This document shows positions 1-50,720 of a DNA stretch of 50,731 nt, in pieces. This DNA is from a phage. The DNA is taken from sequence record PZ445412.1; one strand, 5' to 3'. The first letter of the stretch is position 1, and each line of letters opens with the position of its first letter. The position numbers and the translations under genes were made by a program. Under the pieces are notes generated by a model. That model did no database searches and was not told the origin of the DNA. It saw only the letters and a program-made list of their open reading frames with translations.

Positions 1-1572
1 ATGTTGATTTGGGAAGATTTAACAAAACTTGAAAAGCTGGCTATTAAGGAATTAAGCACACACGATTTTGATACTTTCGTTAAAATCTGGTTCCCGATCC
101 AGCAGGGCGAAAAATGGATTCCTAACTGGCATCACCTTTATATTGCAAGGGCAATTGATGAAATTATTGAAGGTGTGCGCAAAGATACCATTTTTAACGT
201 AACGCCAGGTTCAGGCAAAACCGAATTGCTTTCGATCCACTTTCCGCCTTATTCATATTTGAAATTGAACAAGGTGCGAAATCTTAATATTTCGTTTGCT
301 GATACGCTGGTTAAACGTAACAGCAAGCGTGTGCGCGATCTGGTTAACTCGCGAGAATGGCAAGAGCTTTACCCCGCAAAAACTGGTACAAGCAAGGATG
401 ATGAATTTCAGATCCTTAATGACGCTGGCAAAGTTCGCCTGGAAATGATTAGTAAATCAATGGGCGGTCAGATTACTGGTAGCCGTGGCGGTTACATCAC
501 GCCTGGCGTTTATTCCGGTTGCGTAACGCTTGACGATCCAGAAAAGCCAGATGATATGTTTTCGAAGGTGAAGCGTGAGCGCGGTCAAATGATCGCAAAG
601 AACACCATTCGATCGCGTCGCGCACATTCAGAAACGCCGATTATCGTTATTCAGCAGCGTCTACACGCGCAGGATATGACATGGTTTCTGATGAATGGCG
701 GAATGGGTATTGAATTTGATCAGATATCAATTCCGGCGATGGTTACAGAGGAATACGGGAAATCGCTTCCTGATTGGTTGCAACCGCACTTTGAAAAGGA
801 TGTGCTTTCGTCTGAATACATCGTTATTGACGGCGTGAAGTATTATTCTTTTTGGCCTAGCAAGGAAAGCATTCATGACCTGAAAGCGCTACGCGATGCT
901 GATTTGTACACGTTCCTTTCTCAGTATCAGCAAGAGCCAATTGCTCTTGGCGGTAACGCAATTAACGTTGGATGGTTCCAGTATTACGGAACTGGAGAAA
1001 AATCAACGATGCCAAAACCGGATCGCTTTGATTATACGTTTATTACAGCAGATACCGCTCAGAAAGAAGGTGAGCTAAACGACTACAGCGTTTTATGTTA
1101 TTGGGGCATGTTCAAAGGCCGTATATATTTTATTGACGGTGTGCGCGGAAAATGGGAAGCGCCAATGTTAGAAACGCAGTTTAAAGCGTTTGTTAAACAG
1201 TGCTGGAACCGTAACAAAGAATGCGGAAACTTGCGTAAAATTTACGTGGAAGATAAAGCGAGCGGTACAGGTTTGATCCAGAATTGCCGCAAAGCATTTC
1301 CGATAGAAATTACGCCAGTGCAACGCGATAAAGACAAAGTAACGCGCTGCATGGACGCACAGCCAGTGATCAAGAATGGTTATGTTGTATTGCCTGAATC
1401 GCATCACATGCTTGCTGAATTTCTGGCAGAGGCTGCGGCATTCACTTATGATGATAGCCATCCTCATGATGATATTATGGATAACCTTTTTGATGCTGTT
1501 AATATTGAGCTTAACCTTGCTGATAATGCGGTTGATAGAATGAAGCGTTTAGCTGGATTAGCGAAGCGTTAA
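1..1572 (+). CDS. terL: terminase large subunit
   Basis: 523-aa ORF starting at base 1, RBS AGGTGA at window end; Walker-A-like TPGSGKTE; followed by portal; directly downstream of terS across the window junction. Confidence 0.8.
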   Translation: MLIWEDLTKLEKLAIKELSTHDFDTFVKIWFPIQQGEKWIPNWHHLYIARAIDEIIEGVRKDTIFNVTPGSGKTELLSIHFPPYSYLKLNKVRNLNISFADTLVKRNSKRVRDLVNSREWQELYPAKTGTSKDDEFQILNDAGKVRLEMISKSMGGQITGSRGGYITPGVYSGCVTLDDPEKPDDMFSKVKRERGQMIAKNTIRSRRAHSETPIIVIQQRLHAQDMTWFLMNGGMGIEFDQISIPAMVTEEYGKSLPDWLQPHFEKDVLSSEYIVIDGVKYYSFWPSKESIHDLKALRDADLYTFLSQYQQEPIALGGNAINVGWFQYYGTGEKSTMPKPDRFDYTFITADTAQKEGELNDYSVLCYWGMFKGRIYFIDGVRGKWEAPMLETQFKAFVKQCWNRNKECGNLRKIYVEDKASGTGLIQNCRKAFPIEITPVQRDKDKVTRCMDAQPVIKNGYVVLPESHHMLAEFLAEAAAFTYDDSHPHDDIMDNLFDAVNIELNLADNAVDRMKRLAGLAKR

Positions 1573-1585
1573 TGTGTAAAATCAA

Positions 1586-1612
1586 AGGCTGGAATATTCC
1601 GGCCTTTTTTAT
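1586..1612 (+). terminator. hairpin plus T-tract between terL and portal (attenuator/terminator)
   Basis: GGCTGG-AATATT-CCGGCC stem followed by TTTTTTATT. Confidence 0.4.
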
Positions 1613-1625
1613 TATGGGGGTATTT

Positions 1626-2921
1626 ATGAGCGACAAGGTAAAGGCCATTACTAAAGAAGATGGTTACAACGAAATTTTCGGATCTAAAGATGGAACGTTT
1701 AGGCCAAATGCTTTTTACATGCAAAGTGCGGCATTTAAAACGTTATCGCAATTTTATGAAGAAGATGGAATGGCGCGGCGCATTGTCGATGTTATTCCCG
1801 AAGAAATGGTAACACCTGGTTTTAAAGTTGACGGCGTGAAAAATGAAAAGGCTTTTAAATCGCGTTGGGATGAATTGCGATTAAACGCTAAAATTATTGA
1901 TGCACTTTCATGGTCGCGGTTATTTGGCGGTTCTGCAATTCTTGCTGTTGTTGCTGATAACAGAATGCTGAAATCACCTGTAAAGCCTGGCGCACAACTT
2001 GAAGATATTCGCGTATATGATCGCTATCAGATCACCATTCAGGAGCGTGAAACTAATGCGCGGAGTGTTCGTTACGGTGAGCCAAAACTTTATAAGATCT
2101 CACCTGGCGGAGATATACCGGAATTCTTTGTTCATTACTCGCGTATTTGCATCATTGATGGTGAGCGCGTATCGAATGAAAAACGCCGTCAAAATGATGG
2201 TTGGGGCGCAAGCATTTTAAACAAGCGTTTGATTGAGGCGATTGTTGATTATAACTATTGCCAGGAATTAGCAACGCAATTGCTACGCCGAAAACAACAA
2301 GCAGTATGGAAAGCGCGTGATCTGGCTTTGATGTGCGACGATGAAGAAGGTCGCTATGCGGCGCGTTTGCGTTTGGCTCAGGTTGATGACGAAAGCGGAG
2401 TTGGTAAGGCAATTGGTATTGATGCCACAGATGAAGAATATGAGGTTCTCAATTCTGACGTTTCCGGCGTTCCAGAGTTCTTACAGGAAAAGATTGATCG
2501 AATTGTTGCCCTAACTGGCATTCATGAAATCATCCTCAAAAATAAGAACACTGGCGGCGTTTCAGCGAGTCAAAACACGGCGCTAGAGACTTTCTATAAG
2601 TTGATTGATCGCAAGCGCGGAGAGGATTACAAGCCGATTCTTGAATTCCTTTTGCCTTTCATGATCGCAGAAACGGAATGGTCTATTGAATTCGAACCGT
2701 TAAGCGTTCCGAGCGATAAGGACAAAGCTGAAATTATGGCTAAGAACGTTGAATCTGTTGTAAAATTGAAAGCTGAACAGGCGATTGATCTCAAAGAAAC
2801 AAGAGACACTTTGCGATCCATTTGTCCAGATCTTAAAATCAGTGACAATGACAACATTGAATTGCCAGAGCCGGAAGATTTAGATCCAGAGCCAGGGCAA
2901 GAGGGAGGATTGAATAAATGA
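1626..2921 (+). CDS. portal protein
   Basis: Large ORF immediately after terL; likely start MSDKVKAI at 1626 after GGGGG RBS (six-frame ORF starts 1572); acidic C-terminus; position typical of portal. Confidence 0.7.
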   Translation: MSDKVKAITKEDGYNEIFGSKDGTFRPNAFYMQSAAFKTLSQFYEEDGMARRIVDVIPEEMVTPGFKVDGVKNEKAFKSRWDELRLNAKIIDALSWSRLFGGSAILAVVADNRMLKSPVKPGAQLEDIRVYDRYQITIQERETNARSVRYGEPKLYKISPGGDIPEFFVHYSRICIIDGERVSNEKRRQNDGWGASILNKRLIEAIVDYNYCQELATQLLRRKQQAVWKARDLALMCDDEEGRYAARLRLAQVDDESGVGKAIGIDATDEEYEVLNSDVSGVPEFLQEKIDRIVALTGIHEIILKNKNTGGVSASQNTALETFYKLIDRKRGEDYKPILEFLLPFMIAETEWSIEFEPLSVPSDKDKAEIMAKNVESVVKLKAEQAIDLKETRDTLRSICPDLKISDNDNIELPEPEDLDPEPGQEGGLNK

Positions 2922-13389: not shown

Positions 13390-13413
13390 AAGCCGCCATT
13401 GTGCGGCTTTTTT
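13390..13413 (+). terminator. rho-independent terminator
   Basis: GCCGC-cattgt-GCGGC followed by TTTTTTAT. Confidence 0.6.
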
Positions 13414-13457
13414 ATTGTGTCTATAATGGTGCTTTATTGTGTCTATAATGGTGCTTT
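13414..13457 (+). repeat. perfect 22-bp tandem duplication containing TATAAT (tandem promoter candidate)
   Basis: ATTGTGTCTATAATGGTGCTTT repeated twice, directly upstream of RBS GGAGGG of the L-like gene. Confidence 0.7.
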
Positions 13458-13474
13458 ATTGGAGGGCATAGAAT

Positions 13475-19402: not shown

Positions 19403-19415
19403 AAGGAGTTAAATC

Positions 19416-19450
19416 AATGCCCTGGCTTAACGGTCGGGGCATTTTGTTTT
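19416..19450 (+). terminator. rho-independent terminator after J
   Basis: ATGCCC...GGGGCAT followed by TTTTGTTTTC. Confidence 0.6.
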
Positions 19451-19862
19451 CTTTTGTTCCACGATGTTCACAACCGAATCCGGCGTAAAATTGAAAACGT
19501 CTTGATAACAAAAAGAACAAATTAAATATCTATATAATACATACACTTAGAGTTTAATTATTATTATATATATCTATTTGTATTCTTCTTGTTTCCATTG
19601 TTCTCTATGGTTTGTGGTGGTTGTGTGTTTTGTATTGGTTGATGGTTATATATCACATGGTATGTATTTATATATGGTATGCGGCGTAAATGCGTAAACA
19701 ATGGAACGCAAAAACAACAATTAGTAAAATCATAAACTTACGATGTGATTTTGTTGTCAATGCTAGTTGTAAACGTATGCAAAACAAAAAGAACACTTAA
19801 AGGGTATTGACTACATGCAACAAAGACATATAATGCAGACATACCAACGAGAGGATGACCAA

Positions 19863-24469: not shown

Positions 24470-26389
24470 TTATGGTAGTTCTGGAATTGTTGTGGCATTA
24501 CCTCCAGCCAATCCAGCAATCATTTCCTTCAATTGTTCAATATCAGCTTTTAAACTTGAAACTTCACTTTCTAACGCTTCATTTTTACCCTGCAACTCTT
24601 GAACAACAACAATAAGATCAGAAATAACGGCGCGATCATTAACGTTCATGATTTCGAATTCATCACCGTTTTCATCTGTTGCAGTTCCGCCAAAGAAAAC
24701 GTAAGTGTCGTCTATTTCAGCCATTTGTTGCGCAAGGTATCCACGCTGCAAAACATGGTTTCCCTTATAATAAAACTCCATAACACCAATCTGTTTAACG
24801 CGATCCCATGCGCCAGGCTTAGGAGGTTCAAATCTATCCTTAATACGAACATCAGATCCCTGAATAGCGCAGCGCCCCTCAGGTGTATAGAATCCATTAT
24901 CGTTTCGCATCGAGTACCATACGACACTACCGCCAAATGTGTTAAAAGACCAAACATATTGATACTGTTGCCCAGGGACACCTGCAACATAGTTTTGAAC
25001 ACCAAACCACGAGTTTTCAACATATGTAAGAAGGTTTGCGCCATCGCTTGATTGTTGAGATTTTTCTTTAATCAAAGCAGCAGTCCACGGGCCTCCCTGA
25101 CCATAATAAGCCTTAGCCCACACCGCATTAAATGTAACATCCTGATCAATTCCAACCCCTAAATTTCGTCTTGCTTGAGCTACATTATCAGCACCAGTAC
25201 CACCTTGCGCAATACCTAGAGCCGACCAACCTTTTAGATAGCGATTGAACATACCCCATGTTCCATCATTCCTTACAGATATCTCTTTTAAACCATCTGG
25301 AGAAAGCATTGACGTGAAAACAGAATCCTGAATTATTCTATCAACTTGCAAATTTATTTTTGCTTGCGTAACGTTTTCAGCACCAGTGCCGCCAGCGCCA
25401 ATAGAAAGTGCCGATGTGCTGTTGTTGTCATTACGTGCAACTCGCCATTCTCCATTGTTAGCGATCCGCAATTCATAAGTCCATGCAGGATTTCTGAAAG
25501 AGTTGTAAGCGCCAGTATCTTGATCTTTTACAGAATTAACCGCCTCAACTTTCAAAGCTTCCCTTGCAAGGTCTTTGTTTGCAAGATCATTAAGGTTTTG
25601 ATCCTTATGCAGCAGATTTTCAGGTTGCACCTGTTGCGCCCATTGGCGAGCTTCATCACGCGCAGTCTCAGCGCCAGCCTTTGCATTATCAGCACCAACC
25701 TTTGATTGCTCTGCGGCGAATTGTGCGTTTTCCGCTTCATCACGCGCGTCTAACGCTTCATTTTTAATTCCGGTTATCTCAGTAACGGCAGAATCTTTAA
25801 TCTGTTGCGTTTGGTTTTTTATTGCGTCCGTGTCTGCCTTAATCTGATTGGTTTCGGCAACAGCGGCATTCTTAATCTGTTGAGTTTCAGAAACAGCGGT
25901 ATCCTTAATCTGTTGCGTTTCAGTAACAGCAGCATCCTTTATTGTTTGCGTGTAGTTTTTTAATTGTTCCGTCGCGGCTCGGTCTGCATCAGTTTTTTGC
26001 GCGGAAGCCTCAGCGCGAGCAACAAGATCCTGTATTGTTTTTAAATCAAAGTTTTTGAAAAATTCAATCGCTTCCTCAATAACAGTTTCTTTACTTTGGT
26101 AATAGCGCAGCGTTTCCGCAACATCTTGCGCCATTCCATCTACCGTTAAAGAGTCATTCAACAGGATCACATAATTTCCGTTTTCTACTGGCTCGCCGTC
26201 AGTCTGGATCGCTTTCATTTCCGTGTCACTTACAATATCGCTAATCACAGCCAATTTAAGAGGCGATGTGAGAAATACGATTGTTGCGCCAGCGCGGATA
26301 AGAGAAAGAGGCTCACGCCATTTTGTGCCAGTACCAGTAATAACGCCTTGCGCGTCCATTGCAGCCGTACCAGTGCGATATAAAGCCAT
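24470..26389 (-). CDS. side tail fibre with C-terminal chaperone-like domain
   Basis: 639 aa; about 11-aa tandem repeats (TQQIKDTAVSE-like); C-terminal coiled-coil tail; own sigma70-like promoter and terminator. Confidence 0.7.
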   Translation of the reverse strand: MALYRTGTAAMDAQGVITGTGTKWREPLSLIRAGATIVFLTSPLKLAVISDIVSDTEMKAIQTDGEPVENGNYVILLNDSLTVDGMAQDVAETLRYYQSKETVIEEAIEFFKNFDLKTIQDLVARAEASAQKTDADRAATEQLKNYTQTIKDAAVTETQQIKDTAVSETQQIKNAAVAETNQIKADTDAIKNQTQQIKDSAVTEITGIKNEALDARDEAENAQFAAEQSKVGADNAKAGAETARDEARQWAQQVQPENLLHKDQNLNDLANKDLAREALKVEAVNSVKDQDTGAYNSFRNPAWTYELRIANNGEWRVARNDNNSTSALSIGAGGTGAENVTQAKINLQVDRIIQDSVFTSMLSPDGLKEISVRNDGTWGMFNRYLKGWSALGIAQGGTGADNVAQARRNLGVGIDQDVTFNAVWAKAYYGQGGPWTAALIKEKSQQSSDGANLLTYVENSWFGVQNYVAGVPGQQYQYVWSFNTFGGSVVWYSMRNDNGFYTPEGRCAIQGSDVRIKDRFEPPKPGAWDRVKQIGVMEFYYKGNHVLQRGYLAQQMAEIDDTYVFFGGTATDENGDEFEIMNVNDRAVISDLIVVVQELQGKNEALESEVSSLKADIEQLKEMIAGLAGGNATTIPELP

Positions 26390-27529: not shown

Positions 27530-28138
27530 TTAGCAATCAGTGCTATCGACGGAAATCACAACGCGTTTCTTCTGATTGGCTTCCTTTGCTTTGCGCCGTT
27601 CTTCTTTCGCCTTTTCGCGTTCAGCTTTGCGCCGCGCTTTCTCCTTCTCGCGTTCTTCTGGACTCATAGACCGCAACGGATCGTAAGGCCGCACAAATCC
27701 TCTTGCTTCCGCTTCCTCTTTGGTTACAAATCGCATCAGCTTTCTGTTGCTGCAACGATTCTCTAATGGCTTGCCGTTATTATCAAATTTGATATCTGGA
27801 CGGCAATATGAAGCGCGGAAGCCGTTAAAACCTTTGCGTCGGTAATCTTTCTGGATCAGTTCAGCGCCTTTAGTTGAAATCATGCCGCGCTCTTTCCATC
27901 CCCATACTGTTTTAAGGTTAACGCCAATTTCACGCGCCAGGGCAGCGCAACCGCCGTAAGCGTTGACAACTTCATCAAGCCGCGCTTTTAATCCGGCTCT
28001 TACTTCTTCCTTTAATACAAGATAACCGCTAACAGGTGCGCGACGTTTACGATCTTTACCACGTCTTACGCCGTTGTTACCATTGATTGTTCGTTTGTCG
28101 ATTTCGCCAGTTGAGGCAGCAATTTTGATTTCGCTCAT
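27530..28138 (-). CDS. HTH DNA-binding protein with basic C-terminal tail
   Basis: HTH-like segment CAALAREIGVNLKTVWGWKERG; Lys/Arg/Glu-rich C-terminus; first gene of leftward unit upstream of primase. Confidence 0.4.
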   Translation of the reverse strand: MSEIKIAASTGEIDKRTINGNNGVRRGKDRKRRAPVSGYLVLKEEVRAGLKARLDEVVNAYGGCAALAREIGVNLKTVWGWKERGMISTKGAELIQKDYRRKGFNGFRASYCRPDIKFDNNGKPLENRCSNRKLMRFVTKEEAEARGFVRPYDPLRSMSPEEREKEKARRKAEREKAKEERRKAKEANQKKRVVISVDSTDC

Positions 28139-28148
28139 ATTTTCACCT

Positions 28149-28170
28149 GTAGCACTTTTTGCTAAAAAAC
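28149..28170 (+). promoter_or_regulatory. conserved 22-bp box upstream of helicase
   Basis: GTAGCACTTTTTGCTAAAAAAC followed by TATGATAT and a small hairpin. Confidence 0.5.
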
Positions 28171-28226
28171 TTGATTAAGTTTGTGTATGATATGCCTCAA
28201 ATGGCATTTAGTCAAAAGGATAAAAA

Positions 28227-30200
28227 ATGATTCCTAACATTGAAAAGCAGATTGCAGATCTTGGAGAGGAAAGAATTAAGGCAATCCAGAAGCGTTTCAC
28301 GGTTGGTGAGATTGTCCCGTATGAATACCAATGCGTTGCTTACGCTGAAATTGCAAAGCGCTTGAGCAAGTATGTCGATCCGTTTTTCGTTAAAGCGGCG
28401 GTATCGGCAGGTAAAACAATAATCTTTGCTATGGTTGCGGCTCAGTGTCGGAAAATGGGATTGAAAGCGTTATTTCTGGCGCGTCAATCTGAAATCGTGG
28501 ATCAGGATTCAAAAGAGATTAGCGCCTTTGGTGTTCCGAATTCCGTTTATTGCGCTGGCCTGAATACCAAAAGCGCTTATTTCCCGATTGTTGTCGGATC
28601 GGAAGGTACTGTAATTGGTGGATTGAATAAAGCGTTAGGTGATTACGTCCCACAGGTTTTAGGTATAGATGAATGTCATCAAGTCAACTGGAATGATATT
28701 GTTGAAGCCGAGGAAAACGGCGAAAGCATAGAGCAAATGATGACGCCGAAAGGTGAACCAGTTGAAGGGCATCCATTGCTGATTGGTTCAGGACGCGCAC
28801 AATACACCATTATCATTGCAGAAATGCGCCGCCGTTGTCTTGAGACTTACGGTCATCAGTTGCGCATATTTGGAATGACCGGATCGGAATATCGCGGAAT
28901 TGAGCCGATACTTGTCGAAGATAAAAGAATTCCTGGGTTTTGGCGTGAGCAGATCACAAACATTGATACTGATTACCTGGTAAAATTTGGTTCAGTTGTT
29001 CCCACATATTTTGGCAATGTTGGTGATTTGGGTTACGACTTATCAGAATTTACGCCAGTGCATGAATTTGGCGTTGCTGATTATGACCAGAAGCAATTAA
29101 AGGCCATGAGTGACAAGATTCACCAATCAGTAACCATGACGCAGAAAATAATGCAGATGGTTCATGAGGTAATGAAAAACCGCTTATGTGCTCTTGTTAC
29201 TTGCGCTGACGAAAGGCACTGCAAAGAGGCGGCGGCGGCGCTTCCGTCTGGCACGAAATATCACATTATTACCGGAAAAACTGGAGAGAAACAGCGGCGC
29301 TTATGGCTTGAGGATGCCTATGAAGGGCGCGTGAAATACATCTTCCAGGTTCAGGCGCTAACAACTGGCGTTAACGTTCCGCCGTGGGATACTTCTGTGA
29401 TTTTGCGTAAGATCGGAAGCCTGACGCTATTAACTCAGCTTTTGGGGCGTGGTATGCGTCAATTAAAAACTTACCATAAAGAAGTATTGGGAATGCACAA
29501 AACGGATCACCTTGTTTTGGATTTTTCCGGCACGATGTTTGAAATGGGTAATTTGTATTTCGATCCTATGTTAGAGCAAGCGCAATTCCAGTTGCGTAAA
29601 TCACAGGATAAAGATCCGAAATATTGCCCGATTTGCGGCACAGAAAATTCATTCTATGCTCGCCGTTGCATTAATGAGGATGAAAACGGAAATCGTTGTG
29701 AACATTTCTGGACGTTCCAGGAGTGTGAGGATCAGATTGATGACCGCACAAAGAAAGTTATTGTAAAAGGTTGCGGCGCAAAAAATGACGTTGCTGCGCG
29801 TGTATGCCGTTGCTGTAATGTTCAGTTACGCGATCCAAATGATAACTTGTCCGGCAAGATGTACCGTAAAAACGATTGGTGCGACGTGTTAGATTTTAAT
29901 GTGACGCTGACAAAAAACCAGGCTGGCGTAATATTCTGCTACACGTTGCGTGATAGTGGCGGCGTAGAATTCAGGGCATACGAAAAATATTTCCCTGAAT
30001 CAGAACACAAGATATGCAAAACGCTTTGGACAAAGGCGGTTAGAACTCACGTTATAGATCGCCAGGCCGCAAACTTTATGATCACTTGCCGCAATGCAAT
30101 TAAGATCATGAGTTATGCGGGGCAAATATTGCCGCCAAAACGTGTTACCCATCGCAAGAACACAAAGAAAGAAGATTTGATCGCACAGAAGGAGTTTTAA
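28227..30200 (+). CDS. superfamily-2 ATP-dependent helicase with C-terminal zinc ribbons
   Basis: Walker A AVSAGKT, DExH box GIDECHQ, C-terminal CPICG...C..C and CG...CRCC pairs. Confidence 0.7.
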   Translation: MIPNIEKQIADLGEERIKAIQKRFTVGEIVPYEYQCVAYAEIAKRLSKYVDPFFVKAAVSAGKTIIFAMVAAQCRKMGLKALFLARQSEIVDQDSKEISAFGVPNSVYCAGLNTKSAYFPIVVGSEGTVIGGLNKALGDYVPQVLGIDECHQVNWNDIVEAEENGESIEQMMTPKGEPVEGHPLLIGSGRAQYTIIIAEMRRRCLETYGHQLRIFGMTGSEYRGIEPILVEDKRIPGFWREQITNIDTDYLVKFGSVVPTYFGNVGDLGYDLSEFTPVHEFGVADYDQKQLKAMSDKIHQSVTMTQKIMQMVHEVMKNRLCALVTCADERHCKEAAAALPSGTKYHIITGKTGEKQRRLWLEDAYEGRVKYIFQVQALTTGVNVPPWDTSVILRKIGSLTLLTQLLGRGMRQLKTYHKEVLGMHKTDHLVLDFSGTMFEMGNLYFDPMLEQAQFQLRKSQDKDPKYCPICGTENSFYARRCINEDENGNRCEHFWTFQECEDQIDDRTKKVIVKGCGAKNDVAARVCRCCNVQLRDPNDNLSGKMYRKNDWCDVLDFNVTLTKNQAGVIFCYTLRDSGGVEFRAYEKYFPESEHKICKTLWTKAVRTHVIDRQAANFMITCRNAIKIMSYAGQILPPKRVTHRKNTKKEDLIAQKEF

Positions 30201-30202
30201 AG

Positions 30203-30610
30203 ATGGTTAATGATAAAGGAGATTATCTGGAGTATTACGACAAATCAGATCCAGATACAAGAAAAGAAGAATCTCACCAGGTTGATTCTTACTCATGGCT
30301 TATATACGAATTCCCCATGTGGCTTGTTTGGCACACTAAAAACGAAGGGAAGAAAACCATTGGCACAGCAGTAAAAGATCAGCAAGCAGGTGTGAAAAAG
30401 GGAGTAAGCGACATTCTAATCCTGACTGGTTTTATTGGCTGCAAATATTCATTCATTGCCATTGAGCTTAAAAAAGCCAACAAGAAAGGCACAAAAGTAA
30501 GCAAGGAACAAAAGGAATTCTTACGTCGCGTTAGGGAATGCGGAGGATTTGCCGCCGTATGCTATGGTGTAGAGCAAGTAAAATTGGCTATCGCAGACGC
30601 TACAAAATAG
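30203..30610 (+). CDS. VRR-NUC domain nuclease
   Basis: GVSDILIL...IAIELKK pattern consistent with the VRR-NUC D...E.K core; follows helicase. Confidence 0.5.
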   Translation: MVNDKGDYLEYYDKSDPDTRKEESHQVDSYSWLIYEFPMWLVWHTKNEGKKTIGTAVKDQQAGVKKGVSDILILTGFIGCKYSFIAIELKKANKKGTKVSKEQKEFLRRVRECGGFAAVCYGVEQVKLAIADATK

Positions 30611-30626
30611 CACTTTTTGTTAAAAC
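30605..30626 (+). promoter_or_regulatory. conserved 22-bp box plus hairpin element
   Basis: AAATAGCACTTTTTGTTAAAAC; hairpin GGCGCA-acggaa-TGCGCC; CATAATGCAC; AGAACGAAACGGAG. Confidence 0.6.
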
Positions 30627-30961: not shown

Positions 30962-31699
30962 ATGGCTAAGGATTTTCAGGACAAAGCAACCATTGATACT
31001 TTTGAGCCGGAAATGGATTTTCATGAATTGCAACACGGCAGATATTCAGATATTGCGTTGCGTTCAGGTGGTCATTATCAGCCAGTTAGAGAAAACCCAA
31101 TGTTCAAGGTTAGCGGCAACCGTTACGCCGGAAGTAAGACACCTGATGTTGTGCGTGATTTGTGGGAAACGCCAGATGAAATTGTAGAATATTTGGCTGA
31201 ACGTTACGGCAAATACGATCTTGATGCAGCCGCAAGCGAAAACAACAAGAAATGCGATAAGTTTTACAGCAAGGAAACAAACTGCTTAAAACGTTGGTGG
31301 GGTAGCAATAAGCATGTTTGGCTCAATCCACCATACAGCAATCCAGATCCGTTTGTGTTAAAAGCAATTGAGCAGATGGAACACGGAAACCAGATTGATA
31401 TTTTACTTCCGGCTGACAACTCAACAGCATGGTTTAGCGATGCACAAAAACACGCGGCTGAAATTATCTGGATCACTGGCGAAACATGGGAAGAAGAAGG
31501 AAAACAATATTCCCGCACTGGTCGAGTATCGTTTATTTCTGGAATGACAGGTGAACCAGTTAGCGGAAACAATAAAGGAAGCGTGATTTTTATCATGCGA
31601 CAACTGAAAGAAGGTGAGCAACAACAAACTCATTATGTGCCAATTAGTGAAATTTGCCCTTCTGTTGAGAACAAACGCACAAAAGCGCGGAGTATTTAA
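30962..31699 (+). CDS. dam: DNA N6-adenine methyltransferase (phage Dam type)
   Basis: Catalytic NPPY motif (WLNPPYSNPDP) and upstream DLDAAAS motif. Confidence 0.75.
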   Translation: MAKDFQDKATIDTFEPEMDFHELQHGRYSDIALRSGGHYQPVRENPMFKVSGNRYAGSKTPDVVRDLWETPDEIVEYLAERYGKYDLDAAASENNKKCDKFYSKETNCLKRWWGSNKHVWLNPPYSNPDPFVLKAIEQMEHGNQIDILLPADNSTAWFSDAQKHAAEIIWITGETWEEEGKQYSRTGRVSFISGMTGEPVSGNNKGSVIFIMRQLKEGEQQQTHYVPISEICPSVENKRTKARSI

Positions 31700-35686: not shown

Positions 35687-37267
35687 TTACCCCATTAACG
35701 CCGGATTGACATAAACAAATTTACCCACGCTGCAAACATAATTCTTTTCTTCAAGCATTGGCAATAATTGTTCCTCAATTCGTTTCATCACGCCTGATTG
35801 ACCTGTAAACGGCTTAACCTTACGAGCACTTTCATAGATCGCTCTTGCATTGGTAACGCCTTTATTTTGACGTGAGATCTTAATGATGATTTCAATTAAC
35901 TTGCTCATTTCGGCATCATCGCCAGCGTGACCGGAAGCATTCGCGGCGTTGATATATGTTTTGCTTAATTCGCTGAACATCACCAAAGCCTCTTGCATTG
36001 TCTCAACTTCAATTTCTCGCGACTTTTGCGGCGTACCGTTTGGATTAAACCAATTGCGGATCGTGTGCAATACTGACGCAATGCGGATCACTTGCTTATC
36101 CATTTTACCCAAAGCACCACGCAACATTGTATGTGAATATTTCCCGCCGTCTGCTAAATCTGGCTCTAATTGCTGTCGAGCAATATTAAGAACACGCATT
36201 GCAGAACGTGACGGCTTCAATACAACATTTTGTTCAGTCATGATGTTATGAATCAACTGAAAATATTGCGCCTTTAATTCTTTATCAACTGGCGTGTAAT
36301 CAAGATCACCATTTTCATCAATAAATACACGCTCGCCTAACATTGTTTTTTCACGTACAAGCAAGAAACGTTCACTAACACCGATACCCCGCGCCCCTGC
36401 ATCCATGATCCCTTTTATCGTTTCATCCTGGGCAATTACGCTCATGCAGCCCAACGCAACAAAACTCATATTGTTTTCAGAGTTTGCGCGAGCTATTGAA
36501 ACGTGTCCGGCGTCCCATGCTTTTAGAACCAATTCGCTGTTAGTCTTGCGATCACTATTAGCGTAAGTCAATCCGAGTAAGCTGTTGATGCTTGTTGCTT
36601 CATCGGAAATGACAGCAAAGTTACCCTGGCGATTGTTGATCTTTGCTAACCCTTCCGGCGTGGTGTCTGATACCGGAAAAACGATATCGCACATTTTTTC
36701 TAACTTTTCCTCTAATTCCTCCTTTTCCTCAAACAACGCCGCTAACTCAGTGCCGGAACGTTCAGCTTTCAATTCCTTTTCAACGCCTTTTAATTTAGCT
36801 GCGATCTTCTTTCGCTCTTTCTTGCGTTGTTCGTTTATTCGCTCAACTTCACAGACCATTGGCGCAATAGCCAGGCTGTTGATTGCTGACTTACCAGTTG
36901 ACGGCGGCTGACTGGTTACAACATAAAGCGCCGTTGGTTGTTCAGTGCCGTGGTACTCAACCTGGAAACGTCCAACCATAGCGGCGGAAACGCAACCAAT
37001 GAAATGCATATAGGCTGATGATTCAGGAAATTGAACAGATTGCGCAATGCTACGTGACAGTTTACCCACAACATCAACATCATTACCCAAAGAGATCACA
37101 GGATAGCGGTCATTAGCGCCGTTGATATCCTTTACAGGTTCCCAAAAGCTGGACGATTGGCGGTAGCCGTTCGACTGAATAGCAACGCGAAGCGGCGATG
37201 TTCCCTGCGATTCTGCAATGGCTATAACTTGTTGAGGTGTCAATTTGTTGGTGTCAAAGTCAAACAT
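35687..37267 (-). CDS. DUF3987-like P-loop protein (primase-associated helicase-like)
   Basis: 526 aa, Walker-A-like TSQPPSTGKSA; family assignment from memory of P4-alpha C-terminal-like proteins. Confidence 0.4.
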   Translation of the reverse strand: MFDFDTNKLTPQQVIAIAESQGTSPLRVAIQSNGYRQSSSFWEPVKDINGANDRYPVISLGNDVDVVGKLSRSIAQSVQFPESSAYMHFIGCVSAAMVGRFQVEYHGTEQPTALYVVTSQPPSTGKSAINSLAIAPMVCEVERINEQRKKERKKIAAKLKGVEKELKAERSGTELAALFEEKEELEEKLEKMCDIVFPVSDTTPEGLAKINNRQGNFAVISDEATSINSLLGLTYANSDRKTNSELVLKAWDAGHVSIARANSENNMSFVALGCMSVIAQDETIKGIMDAGARGIGVSERFLLVREKTMLGERVFIDENGDLDYTPVDKELKAQYFQLIHNIMTEQNVVLKPSRSAMRVLNIARQQLEPDLADGGKYSHTMLRGALGKMDKQVIRIASVLHTIRNWFNPNGTPQKSREIEVETMQEALVMFSELSKTYINAANASGHAGDDAEMSKLIEIIIKISRQNKGVTNARAIYESARKVKPFTGQSGVMKRIEEQLLPMLEEKNYVCSVGKFVYVNPALMG

Positions 37268-37997: not shown

Positions 37998-38019
37998 GTT
38001 TTAACAAAAAGTGCTATTT
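37998..38019 (-). promoter_or_regulatory. conserved 22-bp box plus hairpin element
   Basis: Reverse complement AAATAGCACTTTTTGTTAAAAC; hairpin GCCGGAT-ctaga-ATCCGGC; CATAATGCAC; TCGAAAC. Confidence 0.6.
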
Positions 38020-39721: not shown

Positions 39722-39990
39722 TAGATGTTCTCGCTAATAAACTGGATAACCTGGCGAAGATGTTTTTCATCCTTAATTGTCGCTGGTAATTCTTCCTTAA
39801 CTTCTTGGCTTAGATAGATATTACCTTTCCATGTAAAACTACCATCATCATTAATGTAATAAGAGCAAAGCCATTCGCAATCATTATCAGCCTCCCAAAT
39901 GCACAATACATCCATATCATTAAATTGCTCAACGCTTAACTCAATGCCACGTTTGCCAGCGAAGTTAGTAGTTGTTTTTGATACCATCAT
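39721..39990 (-). CDS. hypothetical protein
   Basis: 89 aa; preceded by box 40045-40067 and TCGAAACGAACCGGAG leader. Confidence 0.45.
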   Translation of the reverse strand: MMVSKTTTNFAGKRGIELSVEQFNDMDVLCIWEADNDCEWLCSYYINDDGSFTWKGNIYLSQEVKEELPATIKDEKHLRQVIQFISENI

Positions 39991-40044: not shown

Positions 40045-40067
40045 CGCTTTTAACAAAAAGTGCTATT
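40045..40067 (-). promoter_or_regulatory. conserved 22-bp box element
   Basis: Box then GGCATAATACA and TCATCGAAACGAACCGGAG leader. Confidence 0.55.
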
Positions 40068-40933: not shown

Positions 40934-41169
40934 TTTTCCTTTCCTTCATTGTATGTAAGGTTAATGTGAATTGATGCACTTCCGACAATTTCAGCGGTTC
41001 CAATCTCAACCATGTATATCAATTCATGGCGGCTAAATGATGTGTACGCAGGGAAGCCGTCAACAATGCGCATAACCGGAAGTTCACTGTATTTTGTGTT
41101 AGGCACTGCATATTCATTGCCAGTGCTCTTAATGCGTATAAGAATCATTTTATTCTCCCACGATCCCAA
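40930..41169 (-). CDS. hypothetical protein
   Basis: 79-aa ORF. Confidence 0.4.
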   Translation of the reverse strand: MGSWENKMILIRIKSTGNEYAVPNTKYSELPVMRIVDGFPAYTSFSRHELIYMVEIGTAEIVGSASIHINLTYNEGKEK

Positions 41170-41434
41170 AGATAGAAATTATTGAGTTTGTACGACTCCG
41201 GCGATACTTGCGCATAACAAACGTTAAGTTTTCGCCTTGCTGATGACCTAGCGTGATCGGCATTTCAGAACCATCACCGAATTCATCACCAATCTTTTTT
41301 GGCTTTTCTCGCCACGCGCAAATAAAACCAAATTTATCACGCGTGATATAGCGGTATATGTTAGGAAGGGGCAATTTCAACCCCTCGAAATCAACCTGTT
41401 GCGTGTAACTGCGAAAATTAAGCGTGGAATTCAT
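41150..41434 (-). CDS. hypothetical protein
   Basis: 94-aa ORF. Confidence 0.4.
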   Translation of the reverse strand: MNSTLNFRSYTQQVDFEGLKLPLPNIYRYITRDKFGFICAWREKPKKIGDEFGDGSEMPITLGHQQGENLTFVMRKYRRSRTNSIISIFGIVGE

Positions 41435-41573
41435 ACATCACCTCACCAAATTCACCAACGATTTGAGCCTTATAAAAACCGCCTTTACTTGCAATGTTAT
41501 ATGCTGCGTGCATTGGCATTTCGAATTGTTCAGCTTTGCTGTTTTCGTGCTCCCAGGTAATCAGTACGACCAT
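41418..41573 (-). CDS. hypothetical small protein, first gene of leftward operon
   Basis: Start MVVLITWEHE at 41573 with RBS GAGGAT after box 41629-41650. Confidence 0.4.
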   Translation of the reverse strand: MVVLITWEHENSKAEQFEMPMHAAYNIASKGGFYKAQIVGEFGEVMYEFHA

Positions 41574-41628
41574 TTTGTAATCCTCAATTCGTTTCGATGA
41601 AGTAATCATAGCAATTCGTGACTGATTG

Positions 41629-41650
41629 GTTTTAACAAAAAGTGCTATTC
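41629..41650 (-). promoter_or_regulatory. conserved 22-bp box, first element of leftward operon
   Basis: Box followed by CCAATCAG, CACGAATTGCTA and TCATCGAAACGAATTGAGG. Confidence 0.55.
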
Positions 41651-41656
41651 ATGCGA

Positions 41657-41684
41657 TAGACCGATTGGTCTAGACCGTTTGGTC
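41657..41684. promoter_or_regulatory. two abutting 14-bp palindromes (operator-like)
   Basis: AGACCGATTGGTCT and AGACCGTTTGGTCT just upstream of the first leftward box. Confidence 0.55.
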
Positions 41685-41721
41685 TAATGAACACATCGTT
41701 TTCTGTATCGAACGGATTCAC

Positions 41722-41815
41722 GATCACGTTATGCGATCACAATATGATCATGTTGATGATTGATGTGTGAGTTGATTTGATTTTATTTGATGGGATTTGA
41801 TTAGATTTGAGTAGC
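41722..41815. repeat. GATC cluster plus 10-bp-phased ATTTGA iterons (candidate origin or protein-binding array)
   Basis: Three GATC within 30 bp; ATTTGA at 41775, 41785, 41795, 41805 with exact 10-bp spacing. Confidence 0.6.
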
Positions 41816-42248
41816 TAGTGAGCAGAAATAATCACACCTTGCCGATCAGAGAAAACTTTTCCCGCAAAACATCACTCCAGGCTAGCTCTTGTCTCAATCT
41901 GTTTTCTGCTGTCTCAATTCGCACATTCCGCAAAAAAGCGAAACGGTTCACAAACAGAAAGAACAAATAAATCACCTATATAATAATAATAAAATCAACT
42001 AGTTAGTTATATATATCTATTTATGGTTATATATCTGTCTTAGTTGTTCTGTCTATATAGGCATACCCTGGTATATTTCAATTTATATATTGATATTGGT
42101 ATCTATGGGTATATATATCTATATATGCTCGATTTCCGGCGCAAACTGGTGAACAGGCGAAAAAGACAAGCGTTTTCATTGCTTTGCGTTGAAATTTGTC
42201 TCAAATCGCATATTGAAATGTATTAAGAACCAAAAGAACTTGACACGT

Positions 42249-42275
42249 TATAGAACAAGTTATAACATTCACGGC
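42249..42275 (+). promoter_or_regulatory. sigma70-like promoter candidate for rightward early genes
   Basis: TTGACA, 15-nt spacer, TATAAC; followed by ACCAATCAGGAGG leader. Confidence 0.35.
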
Positions 42276-42304
42276 GTACCAAAAACCAATCAGGAGGAAA
42301 AACA

Positions 42305-42760
42305 ATGGAAGAATTCGACTACATCCCAATGAAAGATTTCTGCAACGGCCTACGCGAAAAGGCAAAGAGCATTGCAGAAGGTGAACCACTAGTGATCCCG
42401 TTGGCTATGCTGGTTCAAAAACTGCATCCAGAAGATGCGAGAAAGGTTACAGCCAGCTACATAAGAACCATCCTTGTGCGCACACCTGAAATCAAAGAGA
42501 AAGGAAGCGTGAGCATCAAGAAGTGCAATTGCCCGGATCGCGGTGAATACCTTGAAGTGACGCTCAACGAAAACAAAAAGCGTCGAGTGATCACAAGTGA
42601 CGACCTTCCAGCAATCAAGGAGGCGGCTGTAAGTAGCGCTTTCGAGAAGTTTATGCACATTCAGCCTGACGTTACAGATCTTGAAGGTGATCAGTTAGTT
42701 GGTGCTACTGTAGCGTTGCGCCGCATGAAAAATCTGATTAAGTCAATGATTAAGGGGTGA
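42305..42760 (+). CDS. hypothetical protein, first gene of rightward early block
   Basis: 151 aa; RBS CAGGAGGA; TTGACA promoter-like hexamer upstream at 42249. Confidence 0.5.
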   Translation: MEEFDYIPMKDFCNGLREKAKSIAEGEPLVIPLAMLVQKLHPEDARKVTASYIRTILVRTPEIKEKGSVSIKKCNCPDRGEYLEVTLNENKKRRVITSDDLPAIKEAAVSSAFEKFMHIQPDVTDLEGDQLVGATVALRRMKNLIKSMIKG

Positions 42761-43047
42761 TGAAAATGAAAATGTCTAAAATAGACTCACTAGCAAAGGT
42801 GATTGCCGAGGAATTGCGAGATCAGAGCGTTAGTGATTCAGATTGGAATATCCTAAAAGAAAACGTTATGCGCCTGTTAGGTAATCGTGTGAGAGTTGTT
42901 TCTGACTACATTGACACGAAAGGCCGAGAATGCACTATGGATGTTGTTTATGTTGCCGGATCGCCAGCGTACCTAACAGCAACAAAAGCTCTCATTGAAA
43001 GCGGAGCTAAATTTACAGTTATTCCGTTGACAGTGACAAAGGGGTGA
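42757..43047 (+). CDS. hypothetical protein
   Basis: 96-aa ORF overlapping upstream stop. Confidence 0.4.
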   Translation: MMKMKMSKIDSLAKVIAEELRDQSVSDSDWNILKENVMRLLGNRVRVVSDYIDTKGRECTMDVVYVAGSPAYLTATKALIESGAKFTVIPLTVTKG

Positions 43048-43405: not shown

Positions 43406-43427
43406 AAATAGCACTTTTTGTTAAAAC
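43406..43427 (+). promoter_or_regulatory. conserved 22-bp box plus hairpin element
   Basis: Box; hairpin GGGGT...ACCCC enclosing TTGACATAATT; TCGAAACGAAACGAGG. Confidence 0.6.
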
Positions 43428-50195: not shown

Positions 50196-50720
50196 ATGGC
50201 TAAAAAAACAGAAGCGCCAGCGGCGGAAAGTCTAAACTTTAAAAAGTTATGGAATAAGCGATATTCCGATCTGGTAGGTAGTGAGATTGATAAACGCGCA
50301 ACGCTAACGCCGGAACAAGTCATGAACCTGATTGTTCAGTATTTTGAGTGGGCGGAGTTAACCGCCATTAAAGCAGGTGAAACGGCATCCTTTCAGGGTC
50401 GAGTGTATCAGGATACGATTCACAAGCCGCGTATTTTTACATGGGAAGGGTTAAAGCTGTTTTGCGGTTTTTCCGGCACAGCACTAGCAAAGTGGAAACT
50501 TAAACCAGGCTATGATGTTGTGATCGAATTTGCTGAGTCTGTAATAAAAGAGCAGAAATACCAGTTAGCCGCAAACGGAATGATTAACAGCACCATGATC
50601 GCAAAAGAGCTTGGCATTGATAAAGGCGACACGTTCAATATTAGCGCCAACGCAAAAGAGCAAGACAATACAGAAGAAGCGATGAAAAACGCAGTCGCAA
50701 GCGTCCTAAGCAAGATTTAA
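50196..50720 (+). CDS. terS: terminase small subunit
   Basis: Start MAKKTEAP at 50196 with RBS CAGGAGGA; immediately upstream of terL across the window junction; terminator and promoter-like element upstream. Confidence 0.6.
   Translation: MAKKTEAPAAESLNFKKLWNKRYSDLVGSEIDKRATLTPEQVMNLIVQYFEWAELTAIKAGETASFQGRVYQDTIHKPRIFTWEGLKLFCGFSGTALAKWKLKPGYDVVIEFAESVIKEQKYQLAANGMINSTMIAKELGIDKGDTFNISANAKEQDNTEEAMKNAVASVLSKI

Follow-up and report, generated by a model that had tools for sequence, protein, structure and literature searches.

A probable packaging start and divergent early-control region in the longest intergenic gap of the T1-like phage DanielBernoulli

We analyzed the intergenic region at positions 41574–42304 of a phage DNA of 50,731 nucleotides (record PZ445412.1; "the window" refers to this whole stretch, and positions are given in it) and suggest that the region is probably the packaging start (pac) and divergent early-control region of a T1-like phage, with a single-copy pac module beside a box-type promoter, followed by a duplicated TA-rich early-promoter cassette. 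In a megablast search, positions 41400–42500 gave a 100% match to Escherichia phage DanielBernoulli (Bas08, MZ501059.1; 50,731 bp), classified in Drexlerviridae, Tempevirinae, Tlsvirus; the window is the entire genome of this phage rotated by 536 bp (window coordinate = MZ501059.1 coordinate - 536).

The region is built of two modules, the single-copy module A (~41600–41880) and the duplicated cassette, module B (~41930–42270). Across Tlsvirus, conservation of the left 280 bp exceeds that of the flanking genes, and positions 41570–41884 alone, without these genes, were matched at megablast level in many Tlsvirus genomes. The palindromes and the ATTTGA array of module A are each unique in the genome, and when the intergenic regions of the relatives Punny and CF1 were compared by blastn with their own genomes, only the box and the TA-rich core recurred.

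Evidence for a probable packaging start in module A

Packaging was one of the roles proposed for this region in an initial annotation made from the letters alone, and it is supported by the homology of module A to the mapped pac region of phage TLS (PMC11447400), with 87–91% identity to the junction of the TLS record, as well as by termini of other relatives in the same zone. In TLS, a submolar 6-kb pac-HindIII fragment placed the first cut, taken as TLS position 1, ~5,882 bp from a HindIII site, and the exact base was chosen by the resemblance of an AGATTT hexamer to P22 pac (PMC11447400). This junction (...gatgattgatgtgtg / agattttgtgattg...) aligns with 41769|41770, at the left border of the ATTTGA array. 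For T1, the record begins within the homologous intergenic region and has a terminal repeat annotated at 1..2800; its start, beside which stands TGATGAGATGTGATTG, a sequence similar to the invariant 18-mer described below, aligns near 41755 in a part where the alignment is weak. For the Rtp-like phage MSK, PhageTerm gave a forward terminus at 36,862 (PMC8421802), ~150 bp right of its leftward box and directly after a GAGTGAGTGAATG motif, and in SU57, also Rtp-like, the start, for which PhageTerm and a sharp step in coverage were used (PMC7718038), is 20 bp to the right of the MSK position; both read-based ends are found just right of a motif homologous to GTGAGTGA. Record ends of the Tlsvirus phages GS71/GS156, validated with PhageTerm (PMC12896672), project to 41827|41828, and the YSP2 record end to 41859|41860. 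Searches for announcements of YSP2, LL5 and Sazh yielded no experimental end data. Five independent terminus determinations in three subfamilies point to a common zone of ~100 bp, in which we infer the cut positions of DanielBernoulli:

41755–41860, plus strand: putative zone of the first packaging cut, from the projected termini of relatives, with packaging rightward
50196–50720, plus strand: small terminase of the P22 gp3 family (PF16677, E = 3e-10; phrog_606), the presumed reader of pac

First cuts of P22 are imprecise and spread over ~100 bp. A scatter of termini over ~100 bp is what a P22-type terminase would give, and the small terminase encoded here is of that family, which is used by pac-type headful phages and supports headful packaging from a pac site. 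We propose that the small terminase would assemble on the invariant blocks and the pentamer array described below, at bases whose contacts are predicted, that the large terminase would make a first, imprecise cut within ~41755–41860, and that DNA to the right of the cut would be packaged by the headful mechanism.

Several points weigh against this proposal. The putative pac zone lies ~8.4 kb upstream of the small terminase gene, and not within or beside it as in P22, SPP1 and P1; the distance recurs in T1 and TLS, and is a family trait rather than a disqualifier. The termini are all projected from relatives, and contact between terminase and DNA is deduced here from sequence. The TLS mapping is of gel resolution, with the base set by likeness to the six letters AGATTT (PMC11447400). 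At the homologous positions 41770–41775 the TLS AGATTT reads AGTTGA, and AGATTT occurs 40 times in the genome, counting both strands; because of this lack of conservation and these 40 copies, the AGATTT-based assignment of TLS pac is without sequence support. Several GenBank starts copy the TLS/T1 convention, so that the termini are not all independent (LL5 was simply reopened to match), and PhageTerm found no ends for two other T1-like phages. Finally, in 10-bp phasing of TT/AA the array falls outside the top genomic windows.

T1 can start packaging between lambda P and Q. Comparison of module A of T1 and Bas08 with phage lambda returned matches of only 10–16 bp, those of T1 at E >= 0.1; the best match (16 bp, E = 0.002) came from Bas08 and lies in lambda cI, outside the P–Q interval.

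T1-like phages are common laboratory and fermenter contaminants, generalized transducers and phage-therapy candidates. The pac sites of T1 and TLS had already been placed in this region, and the element is largely of a known kind. T1-like pac has otherwise been placed only to restriction-map resolution, and what is added here is a shorter stretch, ~60 bp of single-copy DNA that does not vary, as the likely recognition sequence, evidence against AGATTT, the ATATA repeats and the palindromes as the pac determinant, and a family-wide cassette duplication as a concrete candidate for an origin or early-promoter function, together with a connection to Dam that can be tested. With a defined pac fragment, transducing plasmids or phages defective in packaging could be built.

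The pentamer array and its invariant flanks

Fifteen distinct Tlsvirus sequences have in common an 18-mer without any variation and a 21-mer in which a single base varies, the two blocks that bracket the array in module A; a further repeat lies to the right of it:

41754–41771: invariant 18-mer TGATGATTGATGTGTGAG, the longest invariant run among the 15 Tlsvirus sequences and a candidate core of small-terminase recognition
41772–41814: pentamer array of TTTGA/TGATT type, including four copies of ATTTGA and the invariant runs GATTTGATTA and ATTTGAGTAG (41794–41814)
41890–41917, plus strand: two copies of TGTCTCAA, at 41890 and 41910, with a third at 42197 (three of the four genomic copies are in the region)

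ATTTGA occurs at 41775, 41785, 41795 and 41805, in exact 10-bp steps as the initial annotation had noted. Nowhere else in the genome are at least three copies found so close together, and three at 10-bp spacing appeared in none of 200 Markov simulations. In the output of Tandem Repeats Finder the array has a 5-bp unit (TGATT, 8.6 copies). Between the invariant blocks the sequence varies among the 15 relatives, and the pentamer rhythm of xTTGA units is kept. As the alignment reads, what is conserved is a series of pentamers over ~40 bp with invariant blocks on either side, and the exact 10-bp spacing of ATTTGA is peculiar to this phage. We make no claim of DNA curvature, because the period of the array is both 5 bp and 10 bp and its TT phasing does not rank with the strongest of the genome.

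A scan of IMG/VR with the invariant 16-mer gave mostly chance matches and gained only a few Tlsvirus sequences. The TGTCTCAA copies are, among the relatives, common to GJL01/PHB07 only.

Gene setting of the intergenic region

In the annotation of MZ501059.1 the region and its two neighbours are as follows:

41574–42304: whole divergent intergenic region, 731 bp
41418–41573, minus strand: bas08_0064, the first leftward gene and left neighbour of the region
42305–42760, plus strand: bas08_0065, the first rightward gene and right neighbour of the region

This is the longest gene-free gap of the genome (the runner-up, at 19403–19862, has 460 bp), and it lies between small genes on both sides, a leftward block up to 41573 and a rightward block from 42305 on that reaches the terminase genes 8.4 kb downstream. 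The large terminase gene is annotated from window position 1, next to the small terminase gene. The products of the genes flanking the region are DUF7170 and DUF7174 proteins. An Rfam scan of 41000–43000 returned no known RNA element, the sole match being a chance-level S15 leader inside a gene (E = 0.83).

These limits bear out the initial annotation, which had described a longest non-coding stretch of ~700 bp dividing a leftward operon from rightward small genes. Its view of a divergent control region agrees with two predicted promoters, one of box type pointing leftward and one of sigma-70 type pointing rightward, the second of which is kept in TLS, T1 and Rtp-like phages. All of the features it listed are present, but the first leftward gene starts at 41573 and not at 41609.

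The TA-rich cassette and its second copy

Module B consists of a melting-prone, flexible TA-rich block bracketed by AAAGAAC-containing repeats, and ends in a near-consensus sigma-70 promoter that would drive the rightward early genes. Its parts, and a second copy elsewhere in the genome, are:

41956–42125: TA-rich block, the core of the duplicated cassette, recognized by stability, TA steps and paralogy
41958–42239, plus strand: AAAGAAC pair at 41958 and 42233, 275 bp apart, the right copy abutting the -35 hexamer
42240–42268, plus strand: predicted rightward sigma-70 promoter TTGACA-17-TAACAT (10/12 match to consensus) of the early small-gene block, of presumed activity
19490–19850, plus strand: paralogous TA-rich cassette with sigma-70 promoter, preceding the exonuclease/recombinase/SSB operon (within-genome blastn, E = 8e-7)

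No other 150 bp of the genome are as unstable as positions 41976–42125 (nearest-neighbour dG -1.04; mean -1.35, standard deviation 0.056, a difference of more than 5 standard deviations). TA steps number 37 there, compared to a mean of 8.5, and 9 of the 20 TATATA in the genome are in this stretch. The AT-rich block with TATATAT repeats previously marked at 42000–42130 is thus real and wider than had been given. A perfect IHF core, AATCAACTAGTTA, one of six in the genome, is present at 41993–42005. The promoter-like TTGACA hexamer had been recognized correctly but is located at 42240–42245, not at 42249. Only three sigma-70 promoters are listed for TLS, and one of them, P01, is homologous to the rightward promoter; ACTTGAC is kept in the Tlsvirus sequences that cover the position, and a -35 of TTGAC type can be read by eye in T1 and SU57.

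The paralogous cassette sits in the second-longest non-coding region, and its promoter is the homologue of TLS P51. A 29-nt direct repeat (19491–19519 and 19767–19795; 83% identical) brackets its AT-rich core. The two cassettes align in the blocks AACAAAAAGAACAAAT.AA..CTATATAATA, TTATATATATCTATT, GCGGCG.AAA and AAAAGAAC followed by TTGAC. Four of the six forward genomic copies of AAAGAAC are in the cassettes, spaced 275 and 276 bp apart, and in both cassettes the right one abuts the -35. The duplication was also found in Punny (blastn E = 3e-14), CF1 (9e-9), SU57 (2e-13) and T1 (2e-8), and is present in each of the four genera covered. The two copies of one genome resemble each other more closely (0.59–0.69) than orthologous copies across genera do (0.41–0.56), and some words are largely or wholly restricted to the cassettes, namely GTGTAACA in T1 (4 of 4 genomic copies) and GATATACA in SU57 (5 of 6). 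In T1 (1–538 and 29851–30377), five of the six genomic GATTAACA are in the intergenic region on the pac side, and one of the four cassette copies of GTGTAACA overlaps the -10 of the rightward promoter.

By these comparisons the TA-rich block is a cis element that has been conserved together with two of the three early promoters of host type, and it may be an upstream transcriptional element or a replication unwinding element. ATATA repeats have been linked to T1 pac, an assignment attributed to Wietzorrek et al. 2006 by PMC8421802; we rejected the TA-rich block and its ATATA repeats as the pac determinant, because the block is present twice while packaging starts at one site.

A purely transcriptional function, in which the cassette would be an upstream or nucleoid-protein element (of IHF, Fis or H-NS type) that boosts or times two early promoters and has no role in replication or packaging, is a possibility that we take seriously without favouring it. 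The cassette precedes P01 and P51, which are two of the three sigma-70 promoters in the TLS list, the right AAAGAAC stands in the position of an UP element in both copies, and the IHF core falls inside the block. However, the distance of 130–280 bp from the TA-rich core down to the -35 is too great for an UP element, a block of this kind is missing at the third sigma-70 promoter, and, as a piece of weak evidence, the Keio-screen paper on Tlsvirus LL5 does not report ihf, fis or dam as required.

The replication origin suggested in the initial annotation found no direct support in the iteron form in which it was put. The tandem units of the region are of 5/10 bp (41768–41810), 13 bp (two copies) and 14 bp (two copies), and not the 17–22 bp of origin-type iterons; the region has no DnaA box (TTWTNCACA, with up to one mismatch); there is no adjacent initiator gene, the Cro-like regulator, primase and helicase being 12–14 kb off; and the GATC cluster is of ordinary density. 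Of the features of an iteron-type origin, the AT-rich unwinding element does have a counterpart at 41976–42125, though 165 bp from the array. We consider it doubtful, but worth weighing, that the region is or contains an origin of another kind, in which the TA-rich block would be the unwinding element, opened through a phage protein on the flanking repeats and negative supercoiling between the divergent promoters, while the cassette at 19490–19850 would act as a second origin or a cis-acting partner; this would be compatible with pac in module A. In its favour are the extreme ease of melting of the block and its position between divergent promoters, the rare words common to both cassettes in each lineage (AAAGAAC in Bas08, GTGTAACA in T1, GATATACA in SU57), the concerted evolution of the copies within a genome, and a phage gene set with a primase and helicases but no polymerase. 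Both papers in which an origin of T1-like phages was sought, PMC11447400 being one of them, report none. Against it, besides the missing DnaA boxes, iterons and initiator gene, GC skew merely follows gene orientation and is uninformative, and both cassettes end in sigma-70 promoters that fire away from the block, which a role upstream of promoters fits equally well. The more specific form, that the two cassettes, kept as a pair in T1-, TLS- and Rtp-type phages, would be the origin or origins of the T1 family, bipartite like P4 ori/crr or activated by transcription, and one of them beside a possibly Dam-gated pac, we regard as rather unlikely.

A PDB search with the Cro-like regulator for kinship with the P4-alpha origin-binding domain returned only weak Cro-type helix-turn-helix matches (E about 0.2). 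Among the replication genes themselves, the product of 35687–37267 (minus strand), annotated as a "putative helicase" in the leftward operon, is a DUF3987 protein (E = 6e-43), the "DNA helicase" of 657 amino acids is an SF2 ResIII/Helicase_C protein, and in the primase only a zinc-ribbon signature of primase-helicase type (PF08273) was found.

GATC sites and Dam methylation

Module A contains three Dam sites on the left of the putative cut zone and one on its right side, and the phage encodes its own Dam, as the initial annotation had stated:

41722–41749: three GATC sites, at 41722, 41735 and 41746, seen in both haplotypes of the Tlsvirus alignment
41844–41847: fourth GATC, on the right side of the putative cut zone and present in 11 of the 15 relatives
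30962–31699, plus strand: annotated phage Dam methyltransferase, which would methylate the GATC sites

The cluster of three GATC had previously been singled out, and it is present, but its density is no special signal: no second triple within 32 bp exists in the genome, and yet random placement of the 290 genomic sites yields one in 94% of trials. For this reason only the conservation of the triple is informative. The segment has two sequence haplotypes, CACGATCACGTTATGCGATCACAATATGATCA and CATGATCCTGTTACGTGATCGTTATATGATCA, and variable columns make up 1 of 12 in the GATC sites compared to 12 of 28 in their neighbours (Fisher p = 0.033; p = 0.11 over a wider window). One of the sites is missing in phSE-2, and four relatives are without the fourth.

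TLS DNA is GATC-methylated (PMC11447400). Homologues of Dam were found in Punny and CF1 and none in SU57. The Dam-encoding Bas08, Punny and CF1 have about 280–290 GATC each (observed/expected 1.1), while SU57, without Dam, has 61 (observed/expected 0.29) and zero in its pac module. T1 encodes Dam and has 235 GATC against 300 expected.

In P1, seven TGATCA/G hexamers surround the pac cut together with an IHF site, and methylation controls cutting (PMC10028697). We think it improbable, though in keeping with some of the data, that similar gating operates here, such that the terminase would cut only once the phage Dam had fully methylated the flanking GATC (three on the left, one on the right). 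The positions of the sites are kept across two otherwise divergent haplotypes, the fourth is on the opposite side of the cut zone from the triple, T1 has two GATC at the equivalent place, and the phages with a cluster encode Dam while the Dam-less SU57 has no GATC in its pac module. However, GATC density is ordinary for this genome, the conservation test is weak, one site has been lost in phSE-2 and the fourth is absent from four relatives, and SU57 avoids GATC genome-wide, so that its empty pac module is uninformative. The link between T1-type packaging and Dam is drawn by analogy with P1.

Twin palindromes

Two abutting palindromes lie between the box and the GATC sites:

41658–41685: twin palindromes AGACC-N4-GGTCT, a proposed accessory operator for a dimeric protein

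The copies, AGACCGATTGGTCT at 41658–41671 and AGACCGTTTGGTCT at 41672–41685, have 5-bp arms and a non-symmetric 4-bp spacer, and are the only AGACC-N4-GGTCT sites in the whole genome. The initial annotation had described them as two abutting 14-bp palindromes, which is correct except that their true position is one base to the right. They are found in 14 of the 15 Tlsvirus sequences, with spacers that vary freely (GATT, GTTT, GCTT). In LL5 the palindromes carry a symmetric double change (ATACC..GGTAT), and this paired change argues for selection of the symmetry itself. In CF1, ~35 bp of unrelated sequence replaces the palindromes, and the remainder of module A (GATC sites, 18-mer and array) is intact. 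The small terminase of CF1 is 99.4% identical to that of DanielBernoulli, so the palindromes are dispensable and are not the terminase determinant. That they would be the recognition site of the small terminase is accordingly very improbable, despite their uniqueness within a conserved module and the presence of palindrome arrays of their own at the equivalent place in T1 and Rtp-like phages.

The palindrome centres are at about -66 and -80 from the predicted leftward start, which fits the geometry of an upstream activator and not occlusion of the promoter core. An operator controlling the leftward promoter, as suggested earlier, remains plausible in view of the symmetry kept in LL5, although it would not cover the promoter core and is dispensable in CF1; a plausible role is that of an accessory operator for a dimeric protein. 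Hairpins predicted from the palindromes are weak (5 bp, -6.8 kcal/mol). T1 and Rtp-like phages have different palindromes, TTGC-N-GCAA, in three or four copies at the same relative place.

In a search for a palindrome-binding protein, which compared Bas08 and Punny with the palindrome-less CF1, bas08_0057 was the sole gene common to the former two and missing in CF1, a single case and therefore anecdotal. This gene (39724–39990, minus strand) encodes an acidic protein of 89 amino acids that is kept in Punny and other palindrome-bearing relatives; CF1 has an unrelated gene of similar size.

Comparison with known packaging sites and origins

The closest counterpart is TLS pac, which shares with the region the sequence of module A, the divergent intergenic position, a small terminase of gp3 type, a 21-nt box repeat and P01. 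It differs in that TLS pac was assigned to AGATTT (PMC11447400), a hexamer not conserved at the homologous base here. Palindromes, GATC triple, pentamer array and duplicated TA-rich cassette all go unmentioned in the TLS paper, which states that the TLS genome has no iteron-like repeats (PMC11447400). In T1 (NC_005833) the region occupies the same place in the genome and its elements follow one another as they do here (leftward box, palindromes/GATC/TGAT-rich motif, record start, TA-rich block, sigma-70 promoter), and T1 too has a second cassette copy upstream of the exonuclease gene; its palindromes are GTTGCA-N5-TGCAAC, it has two GATC rather than three, and its small terminase is 50% identical.

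With P22 the system shares the small terminase family (PF16677) and, as expected here, imprecise headful first cuts. However, P22 pac is an asymmetric 22-bp site inside the small terminase gene, whereas the site proposed here is intergenic and 8.4 kb upstream, with nothing in common with P22 pac beyond a hexamer. P1 pac (PacA/PacB) is similar in that hexamers containing GATC cluster next to the cut zone, an IHF consensus lies close by and the phage encodes Dam; it differs in having 4+3 GATC sites compared to 3+1 here and an unrelated terminase, and the IHF core is 150 bp away in DanielBernoulli. The bipartite SPP1 pac (pacL-pacC-pacR) has a similar layout, in that short phased repeats occupy the side of the cut that is not packaged and additional sequence lies on the side that is, but its small terminase is of another family and the site overlaps the promoter region of the terminase gene.

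Among origins, lambda ori and P4 ori with crr are alike in having short repeats near an AT-rich block, and two distant, related cis elements recall P4 ori/crr; the primase has the zinc ribbon of primase-helicase type (PF08273), and the T1 record calls its primase similar to alpha-type replication proteins and the phi-R73 primase. Unlike these origins, the region has repeat units of 5–10 bp rather than 17–22 bp, no overlap with an initiator gene and no DnaA boxes.

Predicted leftward box promoter and its genome-wide class

The left end of the region carries the first leftward box, earlier placed at 41629–41650 and here delimited to 41631–41648, with the elements of a predicted promoter downstream of it:

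41631–41648, minus strand: box ATAGCACTTTTTGTTAAA (also given as TTTAACAAAAAGTGCTAT), spanning about -50 to -33 of the predicted leftward start
41605–41610, minus strand: -10-like hexamer TATGAT of the putative leftward promoter, 22 bp downstream of the TTGTTA end of the box
41588–41599, minus strand: leader motif CATCGAAACGAA, from the alignment of 14 box units, upstream of the ribosome-binding site

The box occurs 14 times in the genome compared to 0.18 expected, and each copy is oriented with local transcription. All 14 units have the same order downstream of the box, with a -10-like hexamer, the conserved CATCGAAACGAA leader and a ribosome-binding site; the -10-like element is at the same 22-bp distance in all of them and in relatives. 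A -35 hexamer at normal spacing is absent from the box promoters, the box itself occupying about -50 to -33. The box corresponds to a 21-nt direct repeat, aaATAGCACnnnTTGnTAAAA, described in TLS with its function left open (PMC11447400). Judged by this architecture, the box promoters look like an activator-dependent class, possibly served by the Cro-like regulator.

Other copies of the box are found, for example, at 30607–30624, 38000–38017, 40049–40066 and 43408–43425. In most units the spacer is filled by a GC-rich inverted repeat of differing sequence (e.g. GCCGGATCTAGAATCCGGC), and in four copies the box is itself near-palindromic (TAGCA-N5-TGCTA). At 28139–28226, between the regulator gene (27530–28138, minus strand) and the helicase gene (from 28227, plus strand), two promoters overlap face to face, a rightward box promoter for the helicase and a leftward sigma-70 promoter for the regulator/primase operon. 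The latter is the homologue of TLS P57 (ttgactaaatgccatttg.ggcatatcat). This arrangement suggests autoregulation.

Other repeats in the genome

Two tandem repeats were noted among the tail genes. One, at 25837–25951 inside the lateral tail fibre gene, has a 33-bp unit in 3.5 copies with 83% matches, and the other, a perfect 22-bp repeat of 2.3 copies, is located at 13411–13461 between two minor tail protein genes.

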